From: Reclinomonas americana ATCC 50394
Lineage: Eukaryota
DNA: 41,903 nt
Direction of reading: 5' to 3'
NCBI GenBank assembly: GCA_048213135.1
Contig: PS015035.1
Location: 15,033 to 56,935 of the forward strand
Position 1 is the stretch's first letter. The number at the start of each line of letters is the position of its first letter. Below are positions 4,313-40,800 of the stretch, piece after piece. Made by a program: the position numbers and the translations under genes. A model generated the notes under the pieces. The model was not told the origin of the DNA, made no database searches, and saw only the letters and a list, made by a program, of their open reading frames with translations.

Positions 4313-6960
<2,648 letters not shown>

Positions 6961-14387: not shown

Positions 14388-14424
<37 letters not shown>

Positions 14425-14728
14425 CAGAGAGAGAGAGAGAAAGAGAGACAGAGACAGAGAGAGACAGAGAGAAGAAGACAAGAAGACGCGAATCGCAGAG
14501 GATGAGGAATGAGGGAATGCACAGGAAAGCAAAGAGAGGAGCAGCGAAGAAAGGGAGAAGAGAGGGAATGCACCTCTGTGAGAGAAGAGAGAGAGAGAGA
14601 CAGAGACAGTGAGAGACAGAGAGAAGAGGACAAGAAGAGCAGAGGATGAGGAATGAGGGAATGCATTGGGAAGGGAAAATCGCAATGAGAGGAAGGCAAG
14701 CACCTCTGTGAGCGAGACAGAGAGTGTG

Positions 14729-15928: not shown

Positions 15929-18900
15929 CTACATTGTCTCCCTGCGTCGATCATCGCGTCGCCGTGCGGGATGCGACTGCCGACGATCCTGCTTCTGCTC
16001 TCGACGATCCTGCTTGTGCTCCCGCCGATCGTGCTGGTAGCGACCCTGGCGATCGTCGGTCGGCCGGTCNNNNNNNNNNNNNNNNNNNNNNNNNNNNNNN
16101 NNNNNNNNNNNNNNNNNNNNNNNNNNNNNNNNNNNNNNNNNNNNNNNNNNNNNNNNNNNNNNNNNNNNNNNNNNNNNNNNNNNNNNNNNNNNNNNNNNNN
16201 NNNNNNNNNNNNNNNNNNNNNNNNNNNNNNNNNNNNNNNNNNNNNNNNNNNNNNNNNNNNNNNNNNNNNNNNNNNNNNNNNNNNNNNNNNNNNNNNNNNN
16301 NNNNNNNNNNNNNNNNNNNNNNNNNNNNNNNNNNNNNNNNNNNNNNNNNNNNNNNNNNNNNNNNNNNNNNNNNNNNNNNNNNNNNNNNNNNNNNNNNNNN
16401 NNNNNNNNNNNNNNNNNNNNNNNNNNNNNNNNNNNNNNNNNNNNNNNNNNNNNNNNNNNNNNNNNNNNNNNNNNNNNNNNNNNNNNNNNNNNNNNNNNNN
16501 NNNNNNNNNNNNNNNNNNNNNNNNNNNNNNNGGACTTGAATTCCTTTGGCACGCTGTCCACGCTCAAGGTGCGGCACGTGGCAGCCTCCCGTCCCTGGTC
16601 ACGCGGCCCTCGGCGCGACAGCAACGGCGGACACGGTCGCCGACGCGAATCCAGCGGCGGCAGTGGTGACGGTGGCGGTGGTGGCGGTGTGTACGGCGCC
16701 AGTGGTGGTGGCAGCGATCGCCGCAGTTCCAGTCGCGGCCACGGCGACGATCGCGAGCGCAGGAGACGCAGCNNNNNNNNNNNNNNNNNNNNNNNNNNNN
16801 NNNNNNNNNNNNNNNNNNNNNNNNNNNNNNNNNNNNNNNNNNNNNNNNNNNNNNNNNNNNNNNNNNNNNNNNNNNNNNNNNNNNNNNNNNNNNNNNNNNN
16901 NNNNNNNNNNNNNNNNNNNNNNNNNNNNNNNNNNNNNNNNNNNNNNNNNNNNNNNNNNNNNNNNNNNNNNNNNNNNNNNNNNNNNNNNNNNNNNNNNNNN
17001 NNNNNNNNNNNNNNNNNNNNNNNNNNNNNNNNNNNNNNNNNNNNNNNNNNNNNNNNNNNNNNNNNNNNNNNNNNNNNNNNNNNNNNNNNNNNNNNNNNNN
17101 NNNNNNNNNNNNNNNNNNNNNNNNNNNNNNNNNNNNNNNNNNNNNNNNNNNNNNNNNNNNNNNNNNNNNNNNNTGCCCGCTCTGCATGGCCGTGTGGGCC
17201 GGTTGCTTGCAATTCTGTGTGCCACCCAAATAAGAGAGAGGTGCAATGCATTCTTGTTGCTGCATGACGTACCACCGCGGTGTGCCTCGAGCTACCACAG
17301 TTGCAGCACCAGTTCTCCTCCGGCTCGTCGCGCACCAGTTCCTTCTTCTTGCTCCTCTTCTTATCCTTGTTCTTTTTCGACTTTTTCTTCTTCTTGCTGC
17401 CATCGTCGCCCTCCTCATCCTCCACTTCCTCACCGGCGTCTACCATGGACACATCGCCGCCCTCCTCTTCCTCGTCCTCTTGGGCTGGTCGGAAGCCGGC
17501 TTCGCGGCGCAGGGAGCAGTCGGCGTGGCCGACGGCGCCGCACACGTAGCAGGTGGTCTTGGAGAAGTTTTTCTCAGCGGCGTGGAAGAGGAATTCGGGG
17601 CACGTCTATGAGGGGGAAGGGGGAGGAAGGGGAAGGGAGGGGTGGGGTTAGGGGAAGGGGAAGGGGAAGGGAAGGAAGGGATATTCTCAAACGGAGCACA
17701 GAGAGAGAGAGAGGAGGGAGAAGAGAGTACAAAGATAAGCAGGAGACAGACTGACAGACAGACAGAGAACGAGAGAAAGAGAGAGAGGCAGTGAGGAGAT
17801 GAAACAAAAGCGAGCAAAGGAGTTAACGAACACACCGAGGACGTAAGCGACGAGGGGACAAGCACGATGCGAGGAAAGAAGTGAAAGTGAAGTGGAGGGA
17901 CGAGATGAACAAGGATACGATGCAGGCAACGATTGTAAATTAGAGTGAGAGAGACAGGATGGGGAGAAGCGCTGGAGGACGAAGAGGGCAGGAAGGCAAA
18001 GAGAGCTGATTGGTGAATGCGGTTGCGATTGTACAGAAAAACGAGTAGGGATAGACACGGAGGACGAGTTAACCAACGCAGTCAAAAGACAGATGAGCAT
18101 GAGGATAGCACTGCTCACTTGCCTGCTTCCAACCTTCTCATGCACACGAATTTTCCGCTTTCTCCCTCTTTCTTTGTTTCATTGTTCTCTCTATGTGCAC
18201 ATGAACCTTTCTCACTCGCTCAAATCCACTAATTCTCTCGCTCTCTTCCTCTCCCTCACCATCGCATTCATGCATCCTTCTCTCCTTCGCCCGACTCCAC
18301 TGCCTCTCTCCCTCATCCTCTCCTCTCAACATTCCACTATTCTCCCTCACAATCACTTTGTCTTCGTCTGCTATTCTCTCTTTCTCTCCTCATCCTCCTT
18401 ACCCTCCCTCTCCCCTCCCTTTTTTTCCACGCGTCTTCTCTCCTCCTCCACTTCTCCTTTCTCTCCCCTCCTCTCCCTTCCCCAATTTCGCGCAACATCC
18501 TGAGCATGCCCGAATCGCTTGCAGTTACCGCACGTCAGCGTCCGCGGCTTCCGTGTCTCCGGGCAACTCATCGACACGTGACCCGGCAGGAGGCAGTTGA
18601 AGCACAGCATGTTGCTGCAGGAGCGCTTCCAGTGCGGGCATCCGCAGAGGTAGCACACGGCAAGGGCCTGTTGCACGTGCGATGAGCGAAGAGGAGAGAA
18701 GGAGTGAGTGAAAGAGTACGGGGACGGCAGAAAAGTGAGTGACAGAAAAGTGAGATAGACTGAGAGGGAAGCGAGCTGAAGAGAGTAGGGAGAGACGGAT
18801 AAGCAAGAAAACGGACTCCAATTGCGGCATCAAATGCGGAGTGAGAGTGAGGGAAAGAGAAAGGGGACGACAGAAAGTGAGAGAGAAGAGAGTGACAGAC

Positions 18901-20313
18901 AAGTGAGATAGACTGAGAGGGAAACGAGCTGAAGAGAGAAGGGAGAGACGGATAAGCAAGAAAACGGACTCCAATTGCGGCGTCAATGCAGAGCGAGAGT
19001 GAGCGCGCGAGAGAGAGGGAGGGATGGCAGTAAGAGACAGCGAATGGAAGAGAAAGTCGAGGGAGCAATGTCTTTGGTCAACAGGAAGAGTCAAAGCGAG
19101 AGAAAACAGAGGGGATGGAGACAGAAATACGCGAAAGAAAGACCAAGAGAAATGCAGCGTCACCTTTGACGGGCAGGCGGCGGCCAAATGACCGTCCTCG
19201 CCGCACAGGTAGCACGACTTGTTCGTGACGGTGTTTGGTTGCAGTGCGCGCGCCTCGCTGTCCTCCAGATAGTATCGGAACGGCAGCTGCATCGGCGCTC
19301 AGTCAACAAACTAGATCGCAGAATAGAGAATGCAACCGCACGTCACCTTGAGCACAGACTTGCGCCTCTCCTCTCCGTCGCCACCGGGCGAGAGAACAGC
19401 CTCCACAATGGCACCCTCGTCAACTGCATCGTCGTCGGAGAGCTTGGCTCGTTTGAGTGGCGGCTCCTCGTCTTCGTCCTCCTCAATCATCACCAGTGGC
19501 GCGTCGTCAGCACTCTCCGCCTCCTCCTCGTCGTCTTCCTCCTCCTCGGCAACAGGAGAGGCAGCAATAACAGCAGCAGCAGGTGCTTCCTCTTCCGTCT
19601 CCTCCTCCTCCTCCTGAGTAACAGGAGAGGCAGCAGGGAGAGCAGGAGGAGAAGGGAGAGGAGCTGGTGCGTCCACTGGGCGCATCGGCTCATCGGCGCC
19701 ACTGCTGCTGCTGTCGCTGTCGTCGCTGTATGCGGGTGCAGATCGTCGTCTGGCGGTGGGCTGTGGGGTGAGGGAGGAGAGGGAAGAGGGAGGGAGGATG
19801 AGGGAGGGTGAGAGAAGGGGAAGAGAGGAAAGAGGGAGGAGAGCGGAGTGTGTGCAAGAGTATGCATGAGAGATTGCAAGTCAGAGAGGTGAGGAGAGAG
19901 TGAGAGAGAGTGAGAGAGAGTGAGAGTGAGAGAGATAGAGAGATGCATGAGTGTGTGTGTCAATGTGTGCAATGAGCGTGCAACTCTGTGTGTGTGCGTG
20001 TGTGTGTGTGCACGAGAGAGAGTGTGTGTGGGAGAATGCATGCAAGAGTGTGTCAATGTGTGCACAATGTGTGCAAGAGTGTGTGCAAATGCACGCCGCC
20101 TCTCTGTGCACAAGCAACAGCAAGTGCGCACGCAACAGCACTGGTCTCTGCATTTGTTGTTGTTGTTGGTGCAGGTCGCGCGCGTTTCCCGTTGATGTGC
20201 ATCTGCACTTGCACAGCGCCGCCCTGTTCGTCACTTGCGCGTTGAATGCTTGTGCGTGGCTTCTTGGGGCGACGCTTTTGTCCGGCGGTGGAGGAGGAGG
20301 AGTCGCCACTCAT
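15929..20313 (-). CDS. Zinc-knuckle (CCHC) RNA-binding protein, Air1/Air2/ZCCHC7-like
   Basis: ATG 20313. Exons ~20313-20095, 19760-19347 (acidic), 19286-19164, 18667-18497, 17605-17273, 17213-gap, 16772-16532, 16069-15929. Six knuckle-like motifs: CYLCGEDGHLAAAC, CYLCGCPHWKRSC, CFNCLLPGHVSMSC, CGNCKRFGHAQD|TC, CYVCGAVGHADC, CCNCGSSRHTAV|NC. Two are completed across introns, which supports the splice model. Arg/Asp-rich tail. Confidence 0.8.
18748..18987. repeat. Intronic tandem duplication, ~153 bp period
   Basis: AAGTGAGATAGACTGAGAGGGAA...GGATAAGCAAGAAAACGGACTCCAATTGCGGC at ~18748 and ~18901. Confidence 0.85.
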
Positions 20314-20389: not shown

Positions 20390-21380
20390 TTCTCAAGAGA
20401 AGAGAATGTAGAAGAGCACCTGTCTTTAACTTCTCATTATGTGCTCTACATGTCTCTCAGAGAACTGCGACTCTTGACTGATAAGCTTGACTTGCAGCAC
20501 TTGTCGTTGTCTTGTGCCTCTCAAGAGAAGAGAGAGTGTTTAGGAAGATGAGCATCGTGTCTTTACTTCTCGTTGTGTGCTTCTAATGGTTCTGGAAGTC
20601 ATGAGCACCGTGTCTCTACTTCTCGTTGTGTGCTTCACACGGTTCTCACAGAAGAGACTGTTGATTGATTACGCTTGACTTGCAGCACTTGTCATTGTTT
20701 GACAGCACTGACTTGTTGTGCCTCTCAAGAGAAGAGAGAGTTTTTAGGAAGATGAGCATCGTGTCTTTACTTCTCGTTGTGTGCTTCTAATGGTTCTCAT
20801 AGAAGAGACTGTTGACAGATAAGCTTGCATCGTCCTTCACTTGTCTTTGACAGCACTTGTTGTGCCTCTCGGAGAAGAGAGAGTGTTGATTAAGTGAGTG
20901 AGGAAGTCATGAGCACCGTGTCTCTACTACTTCTCGTTGTGTGCTTCACACGGTTCTCAGAGGAGAGTGACTCTTGACTGATAAGCTTGACTTGCAGCTC
21001 TTGTCTTTGATTGCACTTGTTGTGTCTCTCAGAGAAGAGAGAGTGTTTTGATTGAGGTGAGGAAGCCGTGTGCACCGTGTCTTCACTTCTCGTTGTGTGC
21101 TTCATGTGGCTCTCAGAGAAGAGTGATTCTTGACTGATAAGCTTGCGTTGCAGCACATCGTTATCACTTGTCGTTGTTTGACAGCACTTGCTGTGCCTCT
21201 CGGAGAAGAGAGACAGAGAGTGTTGATTAAGTGAGTGAGAAAGCCGTGTACACCGTGTCTTCACTTCTCGTTGTGTGCTTCACACGCTTCTCAGTGAAGA
21301 GTGACTCGTGACCTTCACATGTCGTTGTTGACAGCGCTTGGTGTGCTTCTTGTGCCCCTGACTGTTGATTGAAGCAGTCT
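20390..21380. repeat. Degenerate minisatellite array, ~150-200 bp unit, about 6 copies
   Basis: CTTCTCGTTGTGTGCTT at ~20565, 20619, 20770, 20930, 21086 and 21263. GATAAGCTTG at ~20480, 20818, 20980 and 21135. GAGAAGAGAGA recurs in each unit. Confidence 0.85.

Positions 21381-22356: not shown

Positions 22357-22357
<1 letters not shown>

Positions 22358-22423
<66 letters not shown>
22358..22423. repeat. (CAA)n microsatellite, ~22 units, in the probable 5' UTR of the downstream gene
   Basis: Uninterrupted CAA run about 80 nt upstream of ATG 22500. Confidence 0.95.
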
Positions 22424-22499
22424 AAACAAAAAAACACAACAACAAGAACAAAAACAAGAAACAGCAACAACCAAAATCAACAACTCAACAACCACGACA

Positions 22500-25400
22500 A
22501 TGGACACCGATCCGAAATCAACTTACTCTGCTGCTGCTGGTGCAGCTGCCAGCCCTGACCCTGGTATGTGTATGAGGCGCATTCTGATGATCTCCTTCAG
22601 TCGGCTGCTTGCGTGAAATTCACTTTAATGTCGCAGAGTACATCGAGGACGATGACTTCCTGGAAGATGACGAAGAAGGGGAGCACGCGCAAACAGGCGG
22701 CAGTGGTGCTGATCGACGCGGTGCAGTGGCGGCCGAGGATGCAGAAGACCATGCGTGCGAGTCAGATCCGGATCGTGACTACCCTCCTCCGGAGGACTTG
22801 TGGCGAGCCGCAGCAGCAGCGTCATCGCAATCGCCGCGAAGCACAGCAGGCCGGCATCGGACCACTCCAGCGACTGCTGCGGCGCCGCCTGTGCGTCGCA
22901 AACGAATGCGACCTCGCTTCAACGACATTCCGAGTACGGACGATGAAGAGGAAGAAGACTACGACAGGGGCTCAGACGGTGAATTTGAGATTGACGACGA
23001 CGACGGTACCGGTGACGCACAGATGGTGCCCGCACGAGAGGCGTATAACCTGCGAAACCGTGGACCATCGGCAGCACCGTTGCCGGGAGAGGAAAGTGAG
23101 GCAGCTGTCCCCCGAATGGAGGGAAGGTCGCCCAGTGGCTCTGGATCCGTGCGGTATGCTCAAGTTCTTCACGTGTCCGTGATTACTATCGGTGCTCCTC
23201 ACTGCCGCTTATGCATCCTAGACCTCCCGCCTCAAAACGACCCTCTGTCAGTGGTGGGAACACACACTCGATCACAAAATCGTCCTCAAGTGTCTCACGC
23301 CGTGGGGTCGCATCCAACGCGCGGGCAGCCGAAGTTATCGAGCGACCAGTGAACACGGAGGATCTTCTCAAAGCCTCGTCTGGTACTTGCGTCTGCAGCA
23401 CACCTTGTCGTGCGTTAATCTAACACTGGCGTACTACAGCTCTATACAGCCCTGGCAGTATGGTGTCGGTGCCCGAGAAACAGCTTCTTGACATTATCGA
23501 AATCTTGAGGCGTCCAATGCCGCCTCGAGATGATCCACCTGACATTCTGGCCCGCGCATTCGACGAATTGGTGGAGCATCACGGCACGATGGCTACGCGC
23601 GATGTCGTTGTTGCTGTGTGCGGCATGCCTGGTTCTGGAAAGACCAATTTCATTCATCGCATGCTGGGTCGTGCCGACTGGAATCAGCGGGATTTGTGCG
23701 GCCGTCAATTTCTCCGCTCTGTAAGCGGCGCAGCACACGCCACCACGACTGCGGCGTACATCCGGTGAGTAATATAGTCAACACTGATTCATTCGCCCTC
23801 TCTTTACGTGGCGCGGTACACTTGCTTATCTCTTGCCTGCAGTCGCGCGCAACGGGATGCACTGCAGCACCCCGGACTTGTGCAAGTTAACGTGACTGCG
23901 AGATGGGTACACGGCCACGACCAGAGCGTTGTCACTGAACTCAGTGAGCGCTTCCAATACCCGCGGTGGATCCAGGAAGATGACGAAGAAGCACTGTTGG
24001 AGTTTGAGCGCGACGTGCTTCTCTTTGAAGCAGCGATTGACACTGCTATCAGCGGTGCCGCTGTGGCGGAGCCACCATATGCGCTGGTGGTCGACTCGCT
24101 GATCATCGAGCATCCTTGTGTACCTGAGCGGACAACGCTCGTGAACTTGCCTGGTCTGCAGCGCCCAGGCGCCAGTTCGCAAGCCTTGGCAAGCAGCAAC
24201 GGTATGCAATGTCCTCCAATGCACTGACTGATTATACTCTTCTGCTACCTCAGTTAATTCACGTGTTCGCCTTTTGTGTCGTCACAGTAGCGCATCGAGT
24301 GCTGAAGGAGGCTGACATTGTCACGTTGAGTTCCACTCGTACCTGCAAGTCCCTGAAACGATGAGCTTACTCACGTTTTTCGCGACCACTTGCAGCTTTG
24401 TCTCCAACTCCCGTGTTGAGAGCTTGTCCTTTGAGAGTTTGCTGAAGGAGTATTTCCGAGGTGCATTCCCTGGTCGCTTGCTTCCACGACACTCCAGTTT
24501 CTATTGCGTTGTTCATCTATTTTCTTCTTGCGTGTAGATCGCATTCCAGCAGGCTTTGTTTGGGTCACCGATAGCGATTTCGACACGCTGACCTCCGCCG
24601 GAGTGGAGGCTTATCTGAGTAGGCTCGGTGACCCAGGTCACAAGGTGTGTGTCGCACGTGTGTGTGTATGTGTGTGCGAATGTGTACTTGCAATTGTGGG
24701 TCTCTCCCTCCGCTACGATATTAATAGTCGCTATTGGCGTTTGCATGCAAAGTTTCACAACCTTCTGGAACCGCTGACGGTCACCGGTGTAACCGAGGCA
24801 ACAGTTGACGCATTGAGCAAGGACCAGCTTCAAGCAATCGTCACGCTGCAGTCGCTCGAGATGTGGACAGCGGTACGCACAATTATACTTCTTGCCCGTT
24901 GATGACGCTGTCTTACTTGAAGCCCGTTGCGGTGTTGCAGCTCGGATCAGAGCTCCAGAAAGTACAGGACAACCCACAGATGTTCGATCATTTGAGCCCT
25001 ATAGAACGGCGTCAGCGCTTTGCGGCGTGGCAGCGGTGCATCCGTGTTTTCCCGCGCCCCTTCATGTTCCACCCGAAGGCCGAACTGGTGGATCGGTTCT
25101 TGGACAACTTGCGAGCACTTGCTCTGAATTCGGTTTGCACTCCTCGCTGCATTTCGTACTTCAGCATTTTCCTCTCGCTAATACCAGCGCCTCACGAATC
25201 GCAACATTAGGACGTCGTGAAATTCGCGCAGAAGAGCTGGAAAGTCATCTCTTTCATGAACATGTTCTCCTACCGTGGCAAGCGGCTGTGCAAGGGAGAT
25301 ACAGTGCATGAGCGATGGGACCGGTTTCTCAAGTGCTTCATGAGGCGCCCTGACATTCACCATCCGAAGATGCCAGACACTGAGGATGCTTTCGCATCTC

Positions 25401-28400
25401 TTCAGCACGACAGTAAGCAACTCATGGTGTGTATCGTGCCGCACCGTACGCTGGGTCACAGGCTACTGATACAACGTCAAATTCCCCCCACCACCATACA
25501 GATTACGAACCTCTTCCGTCGGTGCCTCAAGCGCATCCGAGAAAAGCGCGTACTCCCCCTTGCCCGTATTATCTTTCTTTTCCTTGATCTGTCCTCATCA
25601 CTCTGCTGGTTGCAAATGTGCACAGTTGCGAAAGCGTCATGGCAATGGCACCAGCACATGAGGAAGTTGGCGCTGCTTCGGCAGTGGCTGAAATGGTCAC
25701 GAAGAATCTCGCTCAACATGTGGCTGAAGGCATCTTGCAGATGCATTCACAGATGATTAAGTGCTGGGTGCGAATTCACGTGCGCTTTTCAAAGGGCAAG
25801 CCGCAACGCGGTGAACGCGACACCGATCGCGAAGAGTAGTGCGTCACTGATCTGTTATCGAAAGTCTGCCGTCGCTGAACATCTCACCAAGCCGCTTCGT
25901 CTTGCAGTCGAGCGACAACGGACAACATGCAGCAAATAATCAGCGATGTGTTGTGCAATCAAGAGTCTGCTGGTGCAGGCGTCGGTGCGGCAGAAGCTAT
26001 CGACCCCTCAGAAGCCGCAGATGCCATGCTTGTCGACGGAGACAGCGATCCGGAGAGCAGCGGCATTGGACAGAACGCAGCTGCTGACGAGGAAACGCTT
26101 TGCTCGATGTTGTCCGCGCAGCTGGCTGAGCTATGCCTCGCTGTGCGCACAACATTTGTCGAACAAAGCTGTGCAGACGCATCTCGAGCTGCAGCTGAGT
26201 TGCTCCGCAACTCATTCGATGGTCTTGTCGCGGCCATTAGTGCAAGTGCACCACAGAATCCGATTGACGTGGTGAGTGACTGTCCTGTTGTCTACTTGCG
26301 CAAGCTTCTGAATTGCCGTAATGCAGGATACCGAAGAGCACATCCTGGAGCAGCATGCTGGTCAGTTCATTCAAAATGTTGGAAGAGCGATCGCCGAGAC
26401 GTTTGCACTTCAGCAAGAACCGGAGTCGTCCTTGGGCAAAAGCCTTGACGATTTCTGCCAAGAACTTCGTCAAGAACTCTTCTCCTTTTTCCAGAGTCTG
26501 TTCAACGTTACTTCCAATCCCAAGATCGATCGAGCCGTCGCCACTCAGACATTGCGGGAAGTCAAGGCGATCATGAAGGAGGTGGACGCAAGCACGCATC
26601 GGTAAGCGTAAATGCGCTCATTGCAAGTGATGTGGGTTGCAAGTATCGATCTGATCTTGTATGCCACCCACCCTCAGTGTCGATGGCAGCGAGACAATGT
26701 TCCGGTTCGGCCCGGACGCCAATCCTCCTGCGTTGACGAGCAGCATGTTGCACAACGCGATTCCACTCAAGTGCACTGAGTTGCCACAGCGACTGTGTAC
26801 GGCCCGCCAGTTGCGAAGTGTTGCTGTCTGTCCGTGTGACCTGTTGTAGTTCTTCACATACCACGTCTTGTGACTTTGCATACGCAGAGCACATCTCTTG
26901 GTACAGCTGAGGAATGTGGAAGGCGAGGAGGAGTTGCCCATCATACGCACAAACCGTTTCGTGTCAGCAGGAGTGGTCTACAGGTGGAGAGTCTGGAAGT
27001 CATAGGTCTGAATGGTGCCAATGCTGTGCAGGTGGGGCCCCACTGGACTTCGCCTTGGGTGATGACATCGCGAGCCTACTGGTATGCGATGTCAACCCAG
27101 CGGCGAAGAGGCGCATTGATCACTATGTTGCCATCCGCGGTCAAATTGACGAAACCGAGTTTGCCAGGATATATCGCGACCAAAATGTTCCCCTTGGTCC
27201 GAATGTTCCGACACAGTGTGTGCTTCCGATCTTCATACCCTCGGCGGTACGTCTGTGATTTCAAAATGAGTCAGTGTGGTGGCTCAGTCGACTGCCTCGC
27301 AGGTGGCATTTGTTGACGACTTCGAGCGCCACATCAATCTATCTCTTGGACTCCATCTGACAGCTGAAAAGGCGCCCATGCACCTGCTTTTCATCGTTGT
27401 TCCGCGCGGCCAAGAAGGCATGTACGCAGAGCATCTCCGTCGGTTCCCCACACTGTCGGTGAGAACTCTTATGATGCCAGAGAAAGAAGACCATATCCGC
27501 CTGACAAATATTTTTTCTATTCAGTACGTGCTCGTCACGACACCGTCGGAATGGCCATCGCCGTCGCTGGCTCTTGAAGTATGTCACCGTCTGGCCATCA
27601 GCTTTGGATTTGAGTTGTTGCGTTCCTGTTGCCCGTGCATTCAGTAATTACAAACAAAAAGACACTACATTCACCAATTATCATGCCTAACTGATACTGT
27701 CTCATTCTCAGCCACTGGCTAGTGTCGCACTCAATGTACAACATGCGACTGTTCCGCCCACTCACCGGCGCGACCGAATGCTGCCCCATTTCTCAAGCGC
27801 TGTGCTACGCACAAGACTCTATTCGCAACGTGCAGTGGGAGTGCTTGAAGGCTTGTTGCTGTAGTGTCGTCCAAGTTCTTGTTCATGCTGTCATTTAGCG
27901 CTGACAACATTGAGCCGCGTTCCTGACTGCAGGCCGTGGGCAGAATGTTCTCCGAGTATGAGAAAGAGGACTTCTCCAAGATCCTGGATATTGGAAACAA
28001 GTTCCGAGCGGCGGCTGACGCCCACTTCGGTCGCGACCTCACGCAAGACGACGCAATCGATCGCGATGCGAATATATTCCGTTACCTCTTCGCAAAACTG
28101 CACAGCGGCGGATGGCAAAAATCGTTTGGCACGGCAGCAGTTGTCGAGATTGCGCAGTTGCGTTATTTATGTTCTTAATCGCGCCCTGCTGAGTTACTGC
28201 TTACCGTGGATGAATGCAGAATCATGCAGCGAATAGGCGACCGTGAGCTTGACAACATCGTCAACGTGATCAACAAAGCCTTCCGCTTCGGCTACACGAC
28301 ATTTTGCCCAGCAATCGCAATGCTCACCGTTGCGGCGGCAGGAGTTCGTTCCGACGGGGGGCTTCTCGCTGATCAGCCGCTCATTGCAGCGGACAACATG

Positions 28401-29367
28401 ATCTCCATGTTGCGTCTCATGTGAATCTTGTTGGTCGCGGTGCATTCGTGCTTACAGAGTTACCAACACAGCGGAACTCGCCAGCAGAATCATCTAGTGC
28501 CGGTGGCACTCAACAACACCTTCAGCAGCCTGTGTTACTTTGCAAATCCGTCACTGTCCGATGCTGACGTTGAAGGTCATCCATTGTGCCACGTGGTTCG
28601 TCTACCGCTCGCGCCTCTTGATGTAGATCTTGGGAGCGCAGTGTCCCTCACAACCCTCTCGTTGCAACATTATTGCGTAGTCATTCTTCACCAGCGAGCT
28701 ACTGGAGGCAACGTCGACGTACTATGCAGAGTGCCGTCAGCGTGGTCTTCTCGAGGTCGTGGTTCAGAACTTCAGTTGGATGCTGGATAGCCCGGTGCAG
28801 CCCCGTCCACTGTACAAGCTTAACGGTGGTCTGTTCCGGCCGATTTCGCCAACGAGGCAGGACCCTGCGATTCGAGCCGGGGCCACCAAGGACACTGTGA
28901 AGAAGATCTACGTGCTAGTTTTCTTCAGGCAGCTCGCGCCAGGTGAGTGCATGTGGCTGTTCGAATGACCGCACACACAGAGACGTAGACGGAAGGCCGG
29001 TAGAGAGGAGTACTTGGCTGTGCATCATCCTTGTCTGTCGAGCGAGGTGATGCTGCCGCAGTGCAGCACCACTGTTGTTCTAATTGCATACTGTTTTGCA
29101 GTTCTCTACAAGCAATGGATGACTGCTCTCCGCAAGCTGTGTCCGAAGAAGTCGTCCACTGTCAAGTGGTTCATGATTGACGTCCATCGCATTGACCGGG
29201 ACGACTTGTTCAGGCAATACTTCATCAACCTGCAGCAGCCGAAAAAGCGCCCACCTGTTGACGTGTTGTGTCTGGCCATTACGGCGGAGAAAAGAAAGGG
29301 AAAAGGAAGCGGTCGCGTCTTCAAGAAGAAGATCTGCTACGATCTCGCCATGCTCCCCAGCCCGTGA
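22500..29367 (+). CDS. Large multi-exon protein: acidic disordered N-terminus, dynamin-like P-loop NTPase, helical region, C-terminal GREB1/TAGT-like glycosyltransferase-fold region
   Basis: ATG 22500, exon 1 22500-22563, exon 2 22637-23152, then about 20 exons separated by ~60-110 nt introns, mostly phase-consistent (junctions near 25545-25910 are ambiguous). P-loop VAVCGMPGSGKT (23622-23645). ATTTAA as G2-like. TTLVNLPGL (24144) as G3-like. VLKEADIV. FVWVTDSD (24567) as G4-like. C-terminal LPIFIPS (27226), LLFIVVPRGQEGMYAEHL and LAISFGFDHWLV. Stop TGA 29365-29367. Confidence 0.7.
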
Positions 29368-30469: not shown

Positions 30470-30750
30470 CATCCTCCGAATCCATCACCGCCGGGCTCCC
30501 AAATGCCCCGCAGTGCGCACTGATAGGCACACACGCGCAAACAAGCGAATAGTGCCATCGCCCACTACACATCCTCCGAATCCATCACCGGCCCCGGCTG
30601 ACCGGGCTCCCAAATGCCCAGCAGTGCACACTGATAGGCACACACGCGCGAACAAGCGAATAGTGCCACTACACGTCCTCCCCGTCCTCCGCATCCATCG
30701 CCGGCCCCGGCTGACCGGCCTTCCAAACGCCCCGCAGCACGCACTGATGG
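30470..30750. repeat. Tandem repeat, ~100-115 bp unit, about 2.5 copies
   Basis: TCCTCCG(A/C)ATCCATC(A/G)CCG at ~30472, ~30572 and ~30685. CACTGATAGGCACACACGCGC..ACAAGCGAATAGTGCCA occurs twice. Confidence 0.85.
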
Positions 30751-30849
30751 CAAAAGGCAATGTCGGCCAGCTTCATGCTCGCTGCACCAAGAGCAACACA
30801 AAAGATGAGCAAAACGGCAATCGTAAAGCATCGCATTCACACCATCACT

Positions 30850-35900: not shown

Positions 35901-37210
35901 CACGCTCCACAGTCGGCAAGCCAAGGTGCTTCATGAAGCTAGCTTCCTTGATCACACAAGGTACCCACTCTTCTCTTTCCGCAGAACGAGTCGCAGCGAC
36001 CGTCGTCACGACACCCATCAGTCGACAAGTTGCACTTCTCGCTGGATGTGGAGATTGTCATGCCCAGCGGCCAACCGTGCAACGTGCCGCTGGAGTGCGA
36101 CCTGCCGCTGGTGTTGCGGAATCGCACCGCCCAAGTGCCTCTGTTCGCCAGTCACATTACGTGGGCGGCGGTCGACCCGAGTGCCACGGCCATGCTGGCC
36201 GCATGCTCAGCTCACGATCCCGGCCTGTGCGTCATGGAGCGCGCCGGCGGGACAATCAGTTGCGGCAAATAGGGGGAAAGGCGCACTCGCTCGTCGTGCG
36301 CTTACAGACGTGAGGTGTGCAGATTTTACGCCATCGAGCACCTACGTTCGCCTGGCGCCCGACAGCAAAGTCCAGCTGTCGTTCACCTTTCCCCCGGACT
36401 TCCTGCAGCTCGTCCCCGACGTGTGTGCCGTCGGCCTAGTGACCGCCTGGAGCAGTGTGAAAGCGCATACCATGGTCAGCAGTTGCTACTGTGCTCTTTC
36501 CCTAAAATTTGCGGCGCTCACCGTGGTGCAGGTGCCCGACGTCTTCCGCATCACGGCCGCCGGCGTCGACCACAGCACCAGGCCCTTTGATCAGATCTTT
36601 GTGGAGCTACATGGTGGGCGTGTACGCAGCAGGGCGTGCCTGCTGGTCGCCGTCATGCGATCCACGGGCGTCATTGGTGTGTACGCGCAGCAGTGTGTGG
36701 TCGACGTGCGGCCGGAGCGTGCTGCCCTTTCGGGTGAGAGTGTGTGGTGTGTAAGGGAGACTGCCAACAATACTTGCTCTCATTCCATTGCAGCCGATGT
36801 CGACGCCAAGCGCAGACGAAGGAGAAAGACCGCGGCGGCCGATAGCCAAGATGGCAGCGACGACGATGGTTGGCTGATTTCTTTATTCTCTCTCTCTTTC
36901 GCTCTCTATCTCTCACTATTTCCACAGCCGATGATCCGCGTCCGCGCAAACGAGGCGCACGGGACGCCGATCAATGAGTGCATCAGGAGTGTCGCCATCG
37001 AATGGCGTCATCGTTTTAGTAAGCAGATCGACAGAACGATCGGTAACTTGTATCGAGTGAAGGGGGGAATTGTTGGCTTGTTTACTCGATCTGTGCGACT
37101 ACCCAACTGACTGTACTTCTGCTTCTCGACGGACGCAATATGATGCGCAGCTGTGCATATGCATCAGTGACTATCCCAAGTGACATACTGAGAATCATCG
37201 GTGACTTGCA
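32911..37210 (+). CDS. Unknown multi-exon protein with poly-Pro/acidic N-terminus, beta-rich core and basic NLS (possible transcription factor)
   Basis: ATG 32911. Phase-consistent exons 32911-33241, 33460-33560, 35560-35925, 35985-~36258, ~36323-36474, ~36532-36733, ~36793-36868 (KRRRRRK) and ~36928-37070. High GC3. The 3' end is uncertain. Confidence 0.6.
33978..35050. repeat. Degenerate intronic repeat array
   Basis: Recurring TCAGTTGCAGAA, GTCTC(TC)GGAGAATACTC, AATCAGT and AATACTCGTGTCTTCACTCAC motifs at roughly 200-250 bp spacing within intron 33561-35559. Confidence 0.65.
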
Positions 37211-37800
37211 AGTAGAACTTCTTCGCTCTCTGTTCTTTTCTCTCTTTCTCTCACTCTCCCTCCCTCCCCCTTCCCCTCTCCTTCCCTCCCCCTTTCCCTA
37301 TAGTCCTCTGAAGTACCTTCTCTAACCCAAGTGACATACTGAGAAACATCGGTGACTTGCAAGTAAACTTCTTCGCTCTCTCACTCCGTCTGTGTCTCTT
37401 TCTCTCCCTCTTCCCCCTCTCCCTCCCTTTCCCTTTCTCTCTCCTTCCCTCCCCCTTCCCCACTTTTCCCTTTCCCTATAATCCTTTGCTCTCAAGCGAC
37501 ATACTGAGAATCATCGGTGACTTGCAAGTAGAACTTCTTCGTTCTCTGTTCTTTTCTCCCTCCCTCCCCCTCTCCCTCCCTCTCCTTTTCTCTCCCTCAC
37601 TCCCCCTTCCCCTCTTTATCCCTTTCCCTATAATCCTCTGAAGTACCGTCTCTATCCCAAGTGACATACTGAGAATCATCGGTGACTTGCAAGTAGAACT
37701 GATTTGCTCTCATTTCTTTTCTCACTTTCCCTGTCTCCTTCCCCTTTTTCCCTTCCCCTCTCCTCCCTTTCCCTCTCTATCCCTTTCCCTATAATCCTCT
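37175..37800. repeat. Four-copy tandem repeat: conserved ~45 bp core plus variable polypyrimidine spacer (150-166 bp period)
   Basis: CAAG(T/C)GACATACTGAGAA(T/A)CATCGGTGACTTGCAAGTA(G)AACT at ~37177, ~37328, ~37493 and ~37658. Spacers end in TTTCCCTATA or a close variant. Confidence 0.9.
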
Positions 37801-37820: not shown

Positions 37821-40800
37821 TCAATCATCGTCATCATCACTACCTCCCTCCGACCCCACATAATCATCCCCCTCATACGCGTCGGCCAGCGCCGACAGCG
37901 ACTCGGTCAGCTCCTCAAACTCATCCTGCGTCATGCCCCCCAACTGATGCGCGACAATCCCTCGCGGAGCCGCCGCAAAGCGATCACGAATCTTGCCGCC
38001 CAGATAGCCGTGCACACCGGGTCCGCACGTCAGCGACGCCATTGAGGCCGAGCGCAGGACGTCTGCGAGAGAGGAATGAGAGAATCACCAAAAAGAATGA
38101 GCTGGAGAGGAACACCAACCGTGCAGCTCGGGCGACGCTGGATCCGGATCACGCATGTGCGTCAAATCGCCCTCGGACGACACGTGCTCCTTGAACATGT
38201 GCGGATACGAGATCGGGTACGACAGCGGCGCGTCCACGAGGCTCCAATCGATGCGGTGATAGCCAGAGAACTGACCATAGTAGATGTCCATCAACTCGTC
38301 CACCGAATCTGCGCATTCCCATGAGTGCCCGTTCTTCCCCTCCTCGCCTCCCCCTTCTACCCATTCACACTCACCACAACCCAAGAACCGGTACGGCAAC
38401 AGGCTGCGCTCGCGCTCGCCCGGCTGATACAGCGGGTACCGGCTGAGACCGCGCGCGGCCATAAACTCGGAGAACGGCACGCGATCGTCGTCGGTGAGCT
38501 GCGCGTATGGCGACAGCAGCGGCGCGAGGGGCGAGCGGCGACCGAACGTCGGACCCATGTGCACCATGCGGCTGGCCAGCGACTCGGCCTTGAGCGGTGC
38601 ATGACCACGCGACGAGTAAATCGGCAGCAGCGACTCGGGACAATCGGCCGGATAGATGGGGAAAGGCATGGCCAGCGATGGCGACGCCACTCGCAAACGC
38701 GGCTGCACCGCCAACGTGTGCGCCACGTTGCGCATCTGCGAGTCGGACTTGCCGAATGCCGACGACACAGTGTCGACGAGGGCCGCGCAAATCGCCGAGT
38801 GCGCGTAGTGTCCGGGCTCCACGCGCATGTTGGGGAACAGCGACGAAACCGGCCACTCCTCGCACGACACGGGCGAGAGGATCGAGCTGTGCTCGTACAG
38901 CGACGCCAGACCGATGCCACTCTGAATGTCGTGCATCGCAATGTCGCGTCGCTGTGCACCCTCCGGCAGCGGCGTGGTGAACGAGTTGGTGAAGATCGGC
39001 GTGATGCCGTACTCGTCGCGCAGCATCTCCAGGTAGCGCTCGGTGAAGCCGCCGAAGAAGCCGACCTTGTGGAGGGGGGAATATGGGGAAGGGGGTGAGT
39101 GAGGGGAAGGGGGAAGAGGGGAAGGGAGGGGAAGGCAGGGGAGAGTGAGAAACAGAGAGGAAAAACAGAAACGACAATGCCGAGAGAAGAGAGAGATCTG
39201 GGGGAGAGAGAACGATGGCGCATAGAGGGGATGACTCGGGCCTCTGCTCAGACAATCACAGAGAATGCAGACTTAGGGGAACATTGAAGGGAGCGCCGGC
39301 ACATCGCGCAAAGGAAAGGACACACCTATTCCTGTGCCAGAGACGGATGAAGATATCGCGAGAAAAGAGGGAAAGATATAGAGAGAAGTGAGAGTGAAAG
39401 ATAACGATGACAAGGTCATTGTCTTCGCAATGCATTCACTACTCTGCGACGTGAGCAACTCCTGGCCGCGAAAGAAGCGAGGAGCACGAGAAATCGACGC
39501 AAAGAACAATACGAATACGCTCTTTCATTCCCTGTACAAGTCAAGGAACACGACCGCCATGAAGACAGAGAAATGAATGACAGACACTATCGACAATCGT
39601 TGAAGAGTGGAGCGCTGACAAGAGGATTGTGGAAGCAGGAGGAGACAACAAAGAGCTGATGTGAGAACGACGTCTTCACATTTTCCCTGCACAACGTCTC
39701 GAGAGGAAGGATGGAGAGAAAGAGAGGGAAAGAGAGAGGAGAGCGAGGAAAAATGAAGCACAAGTCTACCATTCTCTCTGCAAATTAGGGAACACGGGGT
39801 CAACGGTCAAAGCCTTGACCTTTACCTGAAAGACCAACAAAACCGAGAGGAGCAAGGGAAGACACATACGCAGTACTCCCACTCTTACAGCAAATCACCA
39901 CGAAGAAGAGAATCAAAGTCAAGCAAATACGCCCTTTCTTCTCTCTTCTCATTTCCCCTAATCCCTCCCTTTCCCACTCTTACAGCAAATCACCACGAAG
40001 AAGAGAATCAAAGTCAAGCAATACGCCATTTCTTCTCACTCTTCTCATTTCCCCCTTTCCCATCCTCTTCCCTTCCCCTCCCTCTCCTCCCCCTTCACTC
40101 TTTCCCCCATTCTCCCTTCCCCTCCCACCCTTCCCTTTCTCCGCTCACCTGATCCGCCAACACATTGAACCCCTGCAACGAATCGCACTCCTCGACAAAG
40201 AAGCGCACCGGGTCGAGATACTCATCGAGCGCCGCCGCCGAACTCAGCAACTCACGACCGACCGTGTGCACATCGCAGTCGTCGGTCACCTGATACTGCC
40301 GCACCACCGAAATGGTGCGCGGGTGATAGGCGGCCTTCAAAAAGTCGCTCCACGTCTGCACCGAGCCGTCGCGATCGGAGAGCGAAAACCACTCGCGGCC
40401 AGTGTTGTCGGCGTACTTGCGTGCCGGCGCTGCCTCGGCCGGTGCTGCCGCCGATGATGACGAGCCCTCGCCGCCACTGCCACTTCCTGCAGCAGCAGCT
40501 GCACTGACCTTGAGCTCCACCGCACTGCCACCGTCATCGTTGAGCGCCTTCAAAAAGTCATTCATAGTGCGGCTCTTGGCACGCGCGGCCGACGCCGACG
40601 CCGCCGCACGTACTCTTCGCCGCACACGAACGCCCAGTCGCACGCTGTCGTCGTCATCGTCATCGTCGTCGTCTTCGCGCTCATCATCCGGCACCTCGTC
40701 GACCTCAATGTCCACGAGCTCGCCGTCGTCGTCAAATGCGCCTTCGACGGGAAGTACGCCGCCGGGCCTGGAAATGACAGGGGATGAGATGATGTGATAA

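Follow-up and report, generated by a model that had tools for sequence, protein, structure and literature searches.

Gene Organization at the Locus

We analyzed a 41,903-nucleotide (nt) stretch of Reclinomonas americana ATCC 50394 DNA (GenBank assembly GCA_048213135.1, contig PS015035.1, positions 15,033 to 56,935 of the forward strand), hereafter called the window, whose positions are used throughout. The subject of this study is an intron-rich gene predicted on its forward strand, the product of which had been described in an original prediction as a fusion of a dynamin-like nucleoside triphosphatase (NTPase) with a C-terminal glycosyltransferase fold of the GREB1/TAGT (TET-associated glycosyltransferase) kind. 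As summarized in Table 1, the deduced protein consists of an acidic N-terminal region, a P-loop domain of plausible GTPase type, a long middle region, and a C-terminal block. The analyses described herein demonstrated that the gene is genuine, and indicated that, judged by standard measures, its product does not belong to the TAGT family.

Table 1. Features of the predicted gene, listed by position in the window.
Feature	Coordinates	Strand	Basis or remark
Whole predicted gene	22500..29367	+	Dynamic-programming models, curated; coding signature
Exon 2	22637..23153	+	Acidic, low-complexity N-terminal region
P-loop exon	23440..23764	+	Contains Walker A/G1; Pfam, NCBIfam, ESM Atlas
GMPGSGKT	23622-23645	+	Walker A/G1
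G3 exon	23843..24201	+	Contains LVNLPGL; motif, N replaces D of DxxG
LVNLPGL	24138-24158	+	G3-like
Three short exons closing the NTPase core	24291..24644	+	Motifs KEADIV and G4-like WVTDSD
KEADIV	24305-24322	+	Peptide string located
WVTDSD	24561-24578	+	G4-like; preceded by V (VWVTDSD)
Middle region, approx. residues 535-1047, 8 exons	24753..26796	+	Models; no family match
Non-coding stretch, 235 nt	26797..27031	+	Coding-potential scan; longest intron or intergenic spacer
C-terminal block, approx. residues 1047-1620 (approx. 570 residues), 8 exons in three frames	27032..29367	+	Motifs; TAGT tests
LPIFIPS	27223-27243	+	Peptide string located
Largest block exon, 103 residues	27303..27613	+	AlphaFold2 without alignment
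LLFIVVPRGQEGMYAEHLRRFP (appears also as LLFIVVPRGQEGMY..)	27384-27449	+	Peptide string located
YVLVTTP	27525-27545	+	Peptide string located
SPSLALEVCHRLAISFGF	27558-27611	+	Peptide string located; contains CHRLAIS
HWLV	27713-27724	+	Peptide string located
AIAML	28311-28325	+	Peptide string located
HLVPVALNN	28491-28517	+	Peptide string located
EATSTYYAECRQRGLLEVVVQNF (EATSTYY..QNF)	28705-28773	+	Peptide string located
LNGGLFR	28819-28839	+	C-terminal block
Basic tail KRKGKGSGRVFKKK	29290-29331	+	C-terminal block

Gene Model and Coding Evidence

The gene model was assembled ab initio by dynamic programming on codon usage from stop-free pieces that occur in all three forward frames and are linked by short GT..AG introns. 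The resulting path starts at ATG 22500, ends at TGA 29365-29367, and joins 24 exons into a stop-free coding sequence of 4,863 nt for 1,620 residues, thus bearing out the earlier claim that one chain of short-intron exons runs through this region. Twenty-two introns measure 50-120 nt and one measures 235 nt; all 23 have GT-AG borders, which were a requirement of the path search and not independent evidence. The model was curated manually at two points, namely, acceptor 28471 was chosen, which yields a 51-nt intron with a branch-like CTTAC site 17 nt upstream, and a bridging micro-exon of 9 nt was removed.

The coding nature of the path was supported by several properties. The GC contents at codon positions 1, 2, and 3 were 62, 44, and 61%, respectively, with G accounting for 36% of position 1, and the purine maximum fell on the first codon position of the model in 17 of the 20 exons of at least 100 nt. 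The acceptors followed a GCAG consensus, having C at -3 in 17 and G at -4 in 12 of the 23 cases, and two exons had ESM "recognition" values (2333 and 2645) within the range of real proteins. Because none of these properties was imposed by the search, it was concluded that a genuine multi-exon gene lies at 22500-29367.

All 12 peptide strings quoted in the original prediction were found in place on the forward strand. Two of them depend on splicing: FGFDHWLV is not contiguous in the DNA and arises via a 98-nt GT..AG intron (27614-27711) and a split codon, while HLVPVALNN enters the protein only with acceptor 28471 and was absent from the first dynamic-programming model. The junctions at 23154-23251, 24645-24752, 25427-25625, 26797-27031, 27841-27943, and 28421-28528, given by the ab initio model only, are uncertain; that at the in-frame TAG at 25837, spanned by a 69-nt intron (GTGCGT..TTGCAG), is of lesser concern. 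Immediately upstream, an (ACA)n array of 48 copies (22357-22500) stops exactly at the predicted start codon. This array may belong to the 5'-untranslated region or the promoter; alternatively, the true start may be at another position.

N-Terminal Acidic Region and GTPase-Type Domain

Residues 1-235 are of low complexity, being composed of 22% Asp and Glu and 42% Ala, Gly, Ser, and Pro. The basic patch RRKRMRPR (22894-22917) inside this acidic region is a possible candidate for a nuclear localization signal.

The domain that follows carries a series of motifs in which GMPGSGKT is followed after approximately 150 residues by a hydrophobic stretch ending in NLPG and, approximately 60 residues further on, by VWVTDSD. 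TRAFAC-class GTPases are defined by the G1 motif GxxxxGK[ST], the G3 motif DxxG, and the G4 motif [NT]KxD. GMPGSGKT conforms to G1 in full; NLPG and TDSD agree with G3 and G4 in order and spacing, with the key Asp and Lys replaced by Asn and Asp, respectively. In a canonical GTPase, such replacements would be expected to impair Mg binding and the base contacts.

The library searches were run exon by exon and are hence weak tests. In Pfam, the P-loop exon matched 16 P-loop families, every one below its gathering score and covering approximately 20-60 residues around the P-loop, among them AAA_33 (E 0.0014) and DO-GTPase1 (E 0.012); in NCBIfam, it matched the Der GTPase (E 0.0048) and YlqF (0.065). 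The Pfam, NCBIfam, and PHROGs matches were all confined to the P-loop. In the ESM Atlas, the clusters nearest to this exon (recognition 2645; scores 0.89-0.93) were those of MMR_HSR1, with smaller shares of Dynamin_N, AIG1, Septin, IIGP, and EHD_N; Dynamin_N was a minority family (13-24% of the members) in 3 of the 10 clusters listed. The top PDB matches of the exon were designed helical repeats aligned to the helix preceding the P-loop, and were judged spurious. The G3 exon matched no family in Pfam, PHROGs, PADLOC, or NCBIfam. Dynamin_N (PF00350), a match to which had been expected over the NTPase exons, was absent from the Pfam listing at E ≤ 1 for every one of them.

The ordered G1, G3-like, and G4-like motifs together with the ESM Atlas neighbors thus make a GTPase-type P-loop domain of the TRAFAC-like kind plausible, and this part of the "dynamin-like NTPase" claim was upheld. 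The dynamin-like assignment itself, for which the Dynamin_N profile gave no significant match, is to be regarded as a lead and not as a result.

Middle Region and Continuity of the Gene

The middle region, whose exon open reading frames (ORFs) gave no family match in Pfam, appears by eye to be largely helical. Its last exon is separated from the C-terminal block by the 235-nt stretch listed in Table 1, for which the coding-potential scan returned nil in all frames. This stretch could be the longest intron of a single gene, or could divide two neighboring genes on the same strand, the first encoding an NTPase-plus-helical protein that ends at the stop 26847-26849 and the second a C-terminal-block protein that starts at ATG 26914. 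The latter arrangement would agree with the lack of coding potential, with a length well outside the range of the other 22 introns, with the stop that frame 0 meets at 26847, and with the open run of frame 1 from ATG 26914 through to the exon at 27032. However, it would leave a spacer of only 64 nt, while the other gaps between recognizable genes of the window consist of kilobases of low-complexity DNA, and a non-coding score (-3 to -8 bits per 20 codons) was obtained for the 39 codons that follow ATG 26914. Furthermore, a good acceptor (TGTGCAG) is present at 27031, and the donor GTACGG at 26797 is in the correct phase. Because two genes would require both the 64-nt spacer and the 39 non-coding-looking codons, one gene with one long intron is preferred as the probable arrangement, and a pair of genes is considered unlikely.

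Comparison of the C-Terminal Block with TAGT Profiles

The Pfam-A copy used here includes TAGT (PF20691), as the neighbor of gene 42 in T6 (L001:22134-22973, minus strand) matched it at 3.7e-9. A reference profile was built from this T6 seed, 14 close relatives, and 72 IMG/VR loci, which were reduced to 26 sequences of less than 75% identity; all 26 matched Pfam TAGT. The profile represents phage and giant-virus members only, GREB1 and JGT (kinetoplastid base-J glucosyltransferase) sequences not being included. In the alignment, I-P-S, the R three residues on, R70, D85, D86, and one G were invariant, and V, Y, Y47, D87, E186, D187, and a second G were conserved in at least 90%. The consensus (IVIPSYKR, VV..E...Y, M.DDD, KEDY, GG) was close to that given in the original prediction. 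The DDD of the central strand corresponds to the DxD-type metal/sugar-nucleotide site of GT-A enzymes. The TAGT/GREB1 definition reportedly derives from Iyer et al. in 2013. An active-site pattern R...DDD...EDY/F is given for DNA-base glycosyltransferases in a preprint.

In the reference set itself, 2 of the 26 viral TAGT proteins also matched Pfam Tet_JBP (best E 5.2e-05), a combination of the glycosyltransferase and the substrate-making dioxygenase in one polypeptide. The candidates for such Tet_JBP fusions are three IMG/VR ORFs of more than 400 residues (L027:1468-2733, L055:1465-2775, and L070:1465-2742).

Neither TAGT nor GREB1 was found on any exon ORF of the block in Pfam at E ≤ 1 or 10, contrary to the match expected over the C-terminal exons. 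When the spliced protein was examined with hmmsearch, with the filters disabled and the search space set to one sequence, E values of 0.1 and 0.051 were obtained with an 11-member and the 26-member profile, respectively (0.04-0.1 overall, at approximately -1 bit). In a leave-out test with six groups, the 12 left-out true TAGTs scored 65.6-244.2 bits, while the values for the spliced protein were -0.6 to -1.8 bits in five runs, the remaining run not reporting it. With hhalign, the C-terminal part gave P 0.13 and a control part of the same protein 0.062. In the exon-wise TAGT search, the best block exon (28237-28420) reached E 0.005 and a control exon (25211-25426) E 0.026, and the best matches were collinear for only 3 of the 6 block exons. 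These comparisons indicate that the protein falls outside the TAGT family by standard measures, and the GREB1/TAGT assignment was not sustained.

Catalytic and Diagnostic Residues

The residues that characterize the TAGT family were then sought at the corresponding places in the block. For the first-strand pattern V-I-P-S-x-x-R, LPIFIPSAVAF has the IPS and lacks the R three residues later. HWLV continues as HWLVSHS, and no DD(D) was found at the collinear place; the chain alignment described below uses DSIRNVQ instead, and hhalign uses IDRDAN, which has no hydrophobic strand before it. At the ED position, LEATSTYY retains the E and has A in place of the D. The other acidic pairs of the block (VDDFE, IDRDAN, and IDRDD) were not collinear behind a hydrophobic strand. 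Candidate equivalents of R70, in the helix before the DDD strand, and of G220-G221, behind the ED helix (CHRLAIS at 27558-27611 and LNGGLFR), were placed by eye in the family order, without support from a scored alignment.

As the block lacks the DD(D), the D of ED, and the R that follows IPS, it is unlikely to be an active DNA-base glycosyltransferase. As the original prediction had proposed, such an enzyme of the GREB1/TAGT/JGT kind could be coupled to a dynamin-like NTPase, a reading to which only the order of the motifs and a weak collinear signal lend support. Against it stand SHS after HWLV, EA at the ED position, the lack of any collinear hydrophobic strand followed by DxD, and the failure of the profiles to support it. 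In the 26 TAGTs, D85 and D86 do not vary at all, and D87, E186, and D187 scarcely do. We thus regard it as highly improbable.

Collinear Chaining Test

As long insertions might mask a remote relationship, a chaining test was devised in which local profile log-odds are linked at a fixed cost per jump with free insertion length, and the observed score is compared with those of 400 composition-preserving shuffles; the background frequencies were entered by hand and the jump costs were of our own choice. With the first model, 31, 7, 10, and 17 of the 400 shuffles reached the observed score at jump costs of 4, 6, 8, and 10, respectively (z 1.5-2.4). With the model including HLVPVALNN, the corresponding numbers were 5, 3, 0, and 18 (z 2.0-3.5). 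At cost 6, the block scored 45.6 and 50.7, and three or four other windows of the same protein 26.8-43.4. The observed score was also equaled by 55 of 70 and 35 of 70 windows of real T6 proteins at this cost, a control confounded by the AT-rich phage composition of the profile. When the chain was run on the genomic DNA in three frames, independently of any gene model, the region scored 69.8 at cost 6 and 43.6 at cost 8, the highest values among the other stretches tested being 66.1 and 33.5, respectively; however, only 103 of the 216 aligned codons lay in the coding frame. The matches that recurred in frame paired LPIFIPS with the first strand, LLFIVVPRGQEGMY with the second strand and helix, and RELDNIVNVINKAFRFGYTTFCP with the helix behind the DDD strand. 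The collinear resemblance to TAGT is thus suggestive but unproven.

These results bear on the reading in which the C-terminal block represents a pseudo-glycosyltransferase, namely, a GT-A/TAGT-like domain that is very remote and catalytically dead, fused to a GTPase-like module and binding, but not making, modified DNA or another glycosylated or hydroxymethylated ligand. The agreement of the motifs of the original prediction with the real TAGT consensus speaks for it, as does the chain alignment, which in family order pairs LPIFIPS with IKIVIPS (14.2 bits), ..LLFIVVPRGQEGMYAEHLRR with ..IIIVVREEEEEEYKKALPK (15.4 bits), and RDRELDNIVNVINKAFRFGYTTFCPAIAM with the helix behind the DDD strand (19.7 bits), the last of these being the best local match in both HMMER profiles as well. 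At jump costs of 6-8, the chain z values were 2.4 for the first model and 3.2 to 3.5 for the second. The alternation of strands and helices in the largest block exon (see below) would also be in keeping with such a domain. However, Pfam TAGT matched no exon ORF, the HMMER E values of 0.04-0.1 refer to a single target, the hhalign value was worse than that of the control from the same protein, and the exon-wise matches were non-collinear for three of six exons, the control exon giving E 0.026 and the best block exon 0.005. At jump costs of 4 and 10, 5-31 of the 400 shuffles reached the chain score, T6 protein windows scored as high in 35 to 55 of 70 cases under the composition-biased control, and fewer than half of the genomic-chain codons lay in the coding frame. 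Moreover, the diagnostic DD(D), D of ED, and R after IPS are absent, and the higher chain scores hinge on the splice choice that adds HLVPVALNN. Taken together, the pseudo-glycosyltransferase is a tentative and rather doubtful explanation, and the earlier statement that the motif order matches TAGT holds as far as the weak collinear resemblance in the chaining tests goes, while standard profile scores and the catalytic acids are lacking.

Search for Relatives and Structural Prediction

To begin with the family libraries, the block exon ORFs matched no family in Pfam (E up to 1 or 10) and nothing relevant in PHROGs, PADLOC, or NCBIfam. The exon 27303-27611 had no relatives at E ≤ 0.001 among 1.84 billion representative proteins (phmmer), and none of its 53 candidates in a word-indexed set of 5.8 billion proteins was confirmed; the PDB yielded 0 matches, the ESM Atlas no usable match, and scans of metagenome, viral, and prokaryote contigs gave 122, 7, and 74 pattern matches, respectively, none of which was confirmed. 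For the G3 exon (23844-24200), 0 of 744 candidate homologues and 0 of 597 in the metagenome scan were confirmed, and the best PDB value was only 0.26. As these queries comprised 103-119 residues, relatives of less than approximately 30-35% identity would escape such searches. On present evidence from the two exons searched, the protein appears to be lineage-restricted.

AlphaFold2 was applied without an alignment to the exon 27303-27613, and returned a model with a mean predicted local distance difference test score of 50.3, in which helices (H) and strands (E) were arranged as H2-11, E17-21, E24-34, H38-45, E51-56, H65-70, E71-78, and H87-100. This predicted alternation would fit any Rossmann-like alpha/beta domain and is non-discriminating.

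Proposed Nature of the Protein

In our view the best explanation, to which we assign a probability of roughly 0.5, is a single lineage-restricted gene of approximately 24 exons that encodes a GTPase-like protein of approximately 1,600 residues, the C-terminal module of which is a partner binder outside the TAGT family and not a sugar transferase. In such a protein, the nucleotide-binding domain would stand on the dynamin/AIG1/septin-like side of the GTPases. It would probably bind nucleotide and hydrolyze it slowly or use it as a switch, as N takes the place of the Mg-binding D in G3 and D that of the K in G4. The long middle part would form a stalk, and the C-terminal 570 residues would constitute an alpha/beta module outside the TAGT/GREB1 family, devoid of the catalytic acids. 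The protein would most likely act as a nucleotide-gated scaffold or in a mechanochemical role, with its C-terminal module engaging a partner instead of transferring a sugar.

Several observations weigh against this explanation. At a jump cost of 6, the chain score was reached by 7 (first model) and 3 (second model) of the 400 shuffles, and by none at cost 8 with the second model; the genomic three-frame chain ranked this 2.5-kb stretch first of 23; and an alignment of IPS, E..Y, an R, E, and GG in the order of the TAGT family is possible. The C-terminal module may accordingly prove to be a degenerate GT-A-like domain. In addition, the GTPase label derives from short motifs and a language-model look-alike search, with no significant profile match and with Dynamin_N never listed. 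The two halves meet across a gap twice as long as any other intron, and both the exon junctions and the union of the halves, as parts of an ab initio model, are unproven.

A more specific proposal would combine a GTPase-type switch with a degenerate, non-catalytic descendant of the TAGT/JGT/GREB1 fold that reads glycosylated or hydroxymethylated DNA, for example that of giant viruses, with the NTPase driving assembly or signaling, so that the protein would serve as a nuclear sensor of hypermodified DNA. Giant viruses carry TAGT and TET genes. We consider this proposal quite unlikely. If the weak TAGT-like signal were true, the protein would represent the first derivation of a pseudo-enzyme from the DNA-base glycosyltransferase fold, and also the first case in which such a derivative is coupled to a Walker-A GTPase-type module, and would provide a testable protist candidate for a reader of sugar-modified DNA.

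On current evidence, the partner-binding scaffold preferred here amounts to a large GTPase-like protein that is specific to its lineage and ends in an orphan domain, which is useful for genome annotation and unsurprising, orphan multidomain proteins being common in protists. The case also teaches that an order of motifs seen by eye can mimic a family consensus closely while the scored comparisons remain at chance level.

Genomic Context

The window belongs to a eukaryotic scaffold and contains 11 N gaps, with GA/CT-rich low-complexity DNA between the recognizable genes; Rfam gave 0 matches on it. Among nine scanned ORFs outside the gene, family matches were obtained for three only. The ORF 38088-39272 (minus strand) matched Tubulin_3 (Misato/DML1-type) at E 2.2e-05 and 24.7 bits, below the gathering score of 30 bits, and probably represents one exon of a Misato-like gene. 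The ORF 18374-19298 (minus strand) encodes a CCHC zinc knuckle (zf-CCHC, 9.6e-05), and the ORF 4827-5399 (plus strand) an ankyrin repeat (Ank_4, 2.7e-05).

Tandem repeats were found at 20594-21312 (160-nt unit, 4.5 copies), 30470-30752 (111 nt, approximately 2 copies), and 37171-37800 (165 nt, 3.5 copies), and GA/AG dinucleotide arrays flank N gaps at 5309-5439, 5881-5982, and 14388-14472. The composition of the plus strand switches from purine-rich, with positive GC and AT skews, up to approximately 21 kb, to pyrimidine-rich at approximately 30-38 kb, and a compositional pattern repeats approximately every 3 kb between 5 and 15 kb.

Comparison with Known Systems

With the TAGT proteins of phages, giant viruses, and kinetoplastids (JGT), the C-terminal block shares the order of the motifs, namely, a hydrophobic strand with IPS, h-VV..E/Q...Y (h, hydrophobic), a helix after the central strand, E...Y....G, and, as placed by eye, GG, and the alternating strands and helices predicted in one exon by a low-confidence model. 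It differs from them in lacking a profile match, the DD(D), the D of ED, and the R that follows IPS, and in its size of approximately 570 residues as compared with approximately 205-280 in TAGT; long insertions would therefore be needed for a TAGT match. Furthermore, the gene studied here is eukaryotic, intron-rich, and, in the preferred model, fused. The window ORFs that were run through general Pfam scans gave no match to Tet_JBP.

GREB1 is described as having an N-terminal Zn-binding domain and a circularly permuted, inactive superfamily 2 (SF2) helicase, an NTPase-type module, ahead of its TAGT-like domain (PMC7968844). The animal proteins GREB1 and GREB1L thus resemble the present protein in being large and in carrying an NTPase-type module that precedes a TAGT-like C-terminal part, and the architecture, which the original prediction had not recognized as described, turned out to be less unprecedented. 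The resemblance does not extend to the NTPase, which in the present protein combines a classical Walker A with subsequent G3- and G4-like motifs and is not an SF2 helicase, nor to the transferase domain, which in GREB1 is reported to be active on a protein substrate, while the catalytic acids are absent from the present block. No GREB1 or helicase family was matched by any exon ORF in Pfam. A literature search, poorly selective in part, retrieved no description of a Walker-A GTPase-type module fused to a TAGT-like domain.

The dynamin superfamily and other TRAFAC GTPases share with the predicted protein the G1 motif GxxxxGK[ST], a hydrophobic strand followed by xLPG, a T-x-x-D approximately 60 residues later, and a long non-globular region behind the G domain, and their ESM Atlas clusters are the nearest to the P-loop exon. 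Unlike in these families, no significant GTPase profile was matched by single exons, N stands for D in G3 and D for K in G4, approximately 150 residues separate G1 from G3, and no middle, GED, or PH domain was recognized. Judged from these sequence comparisons, the protein would belong to neither TAGT, GREB1, nor Dynamin_N, and would at most represent a large scaffold resembling the GTPase families.

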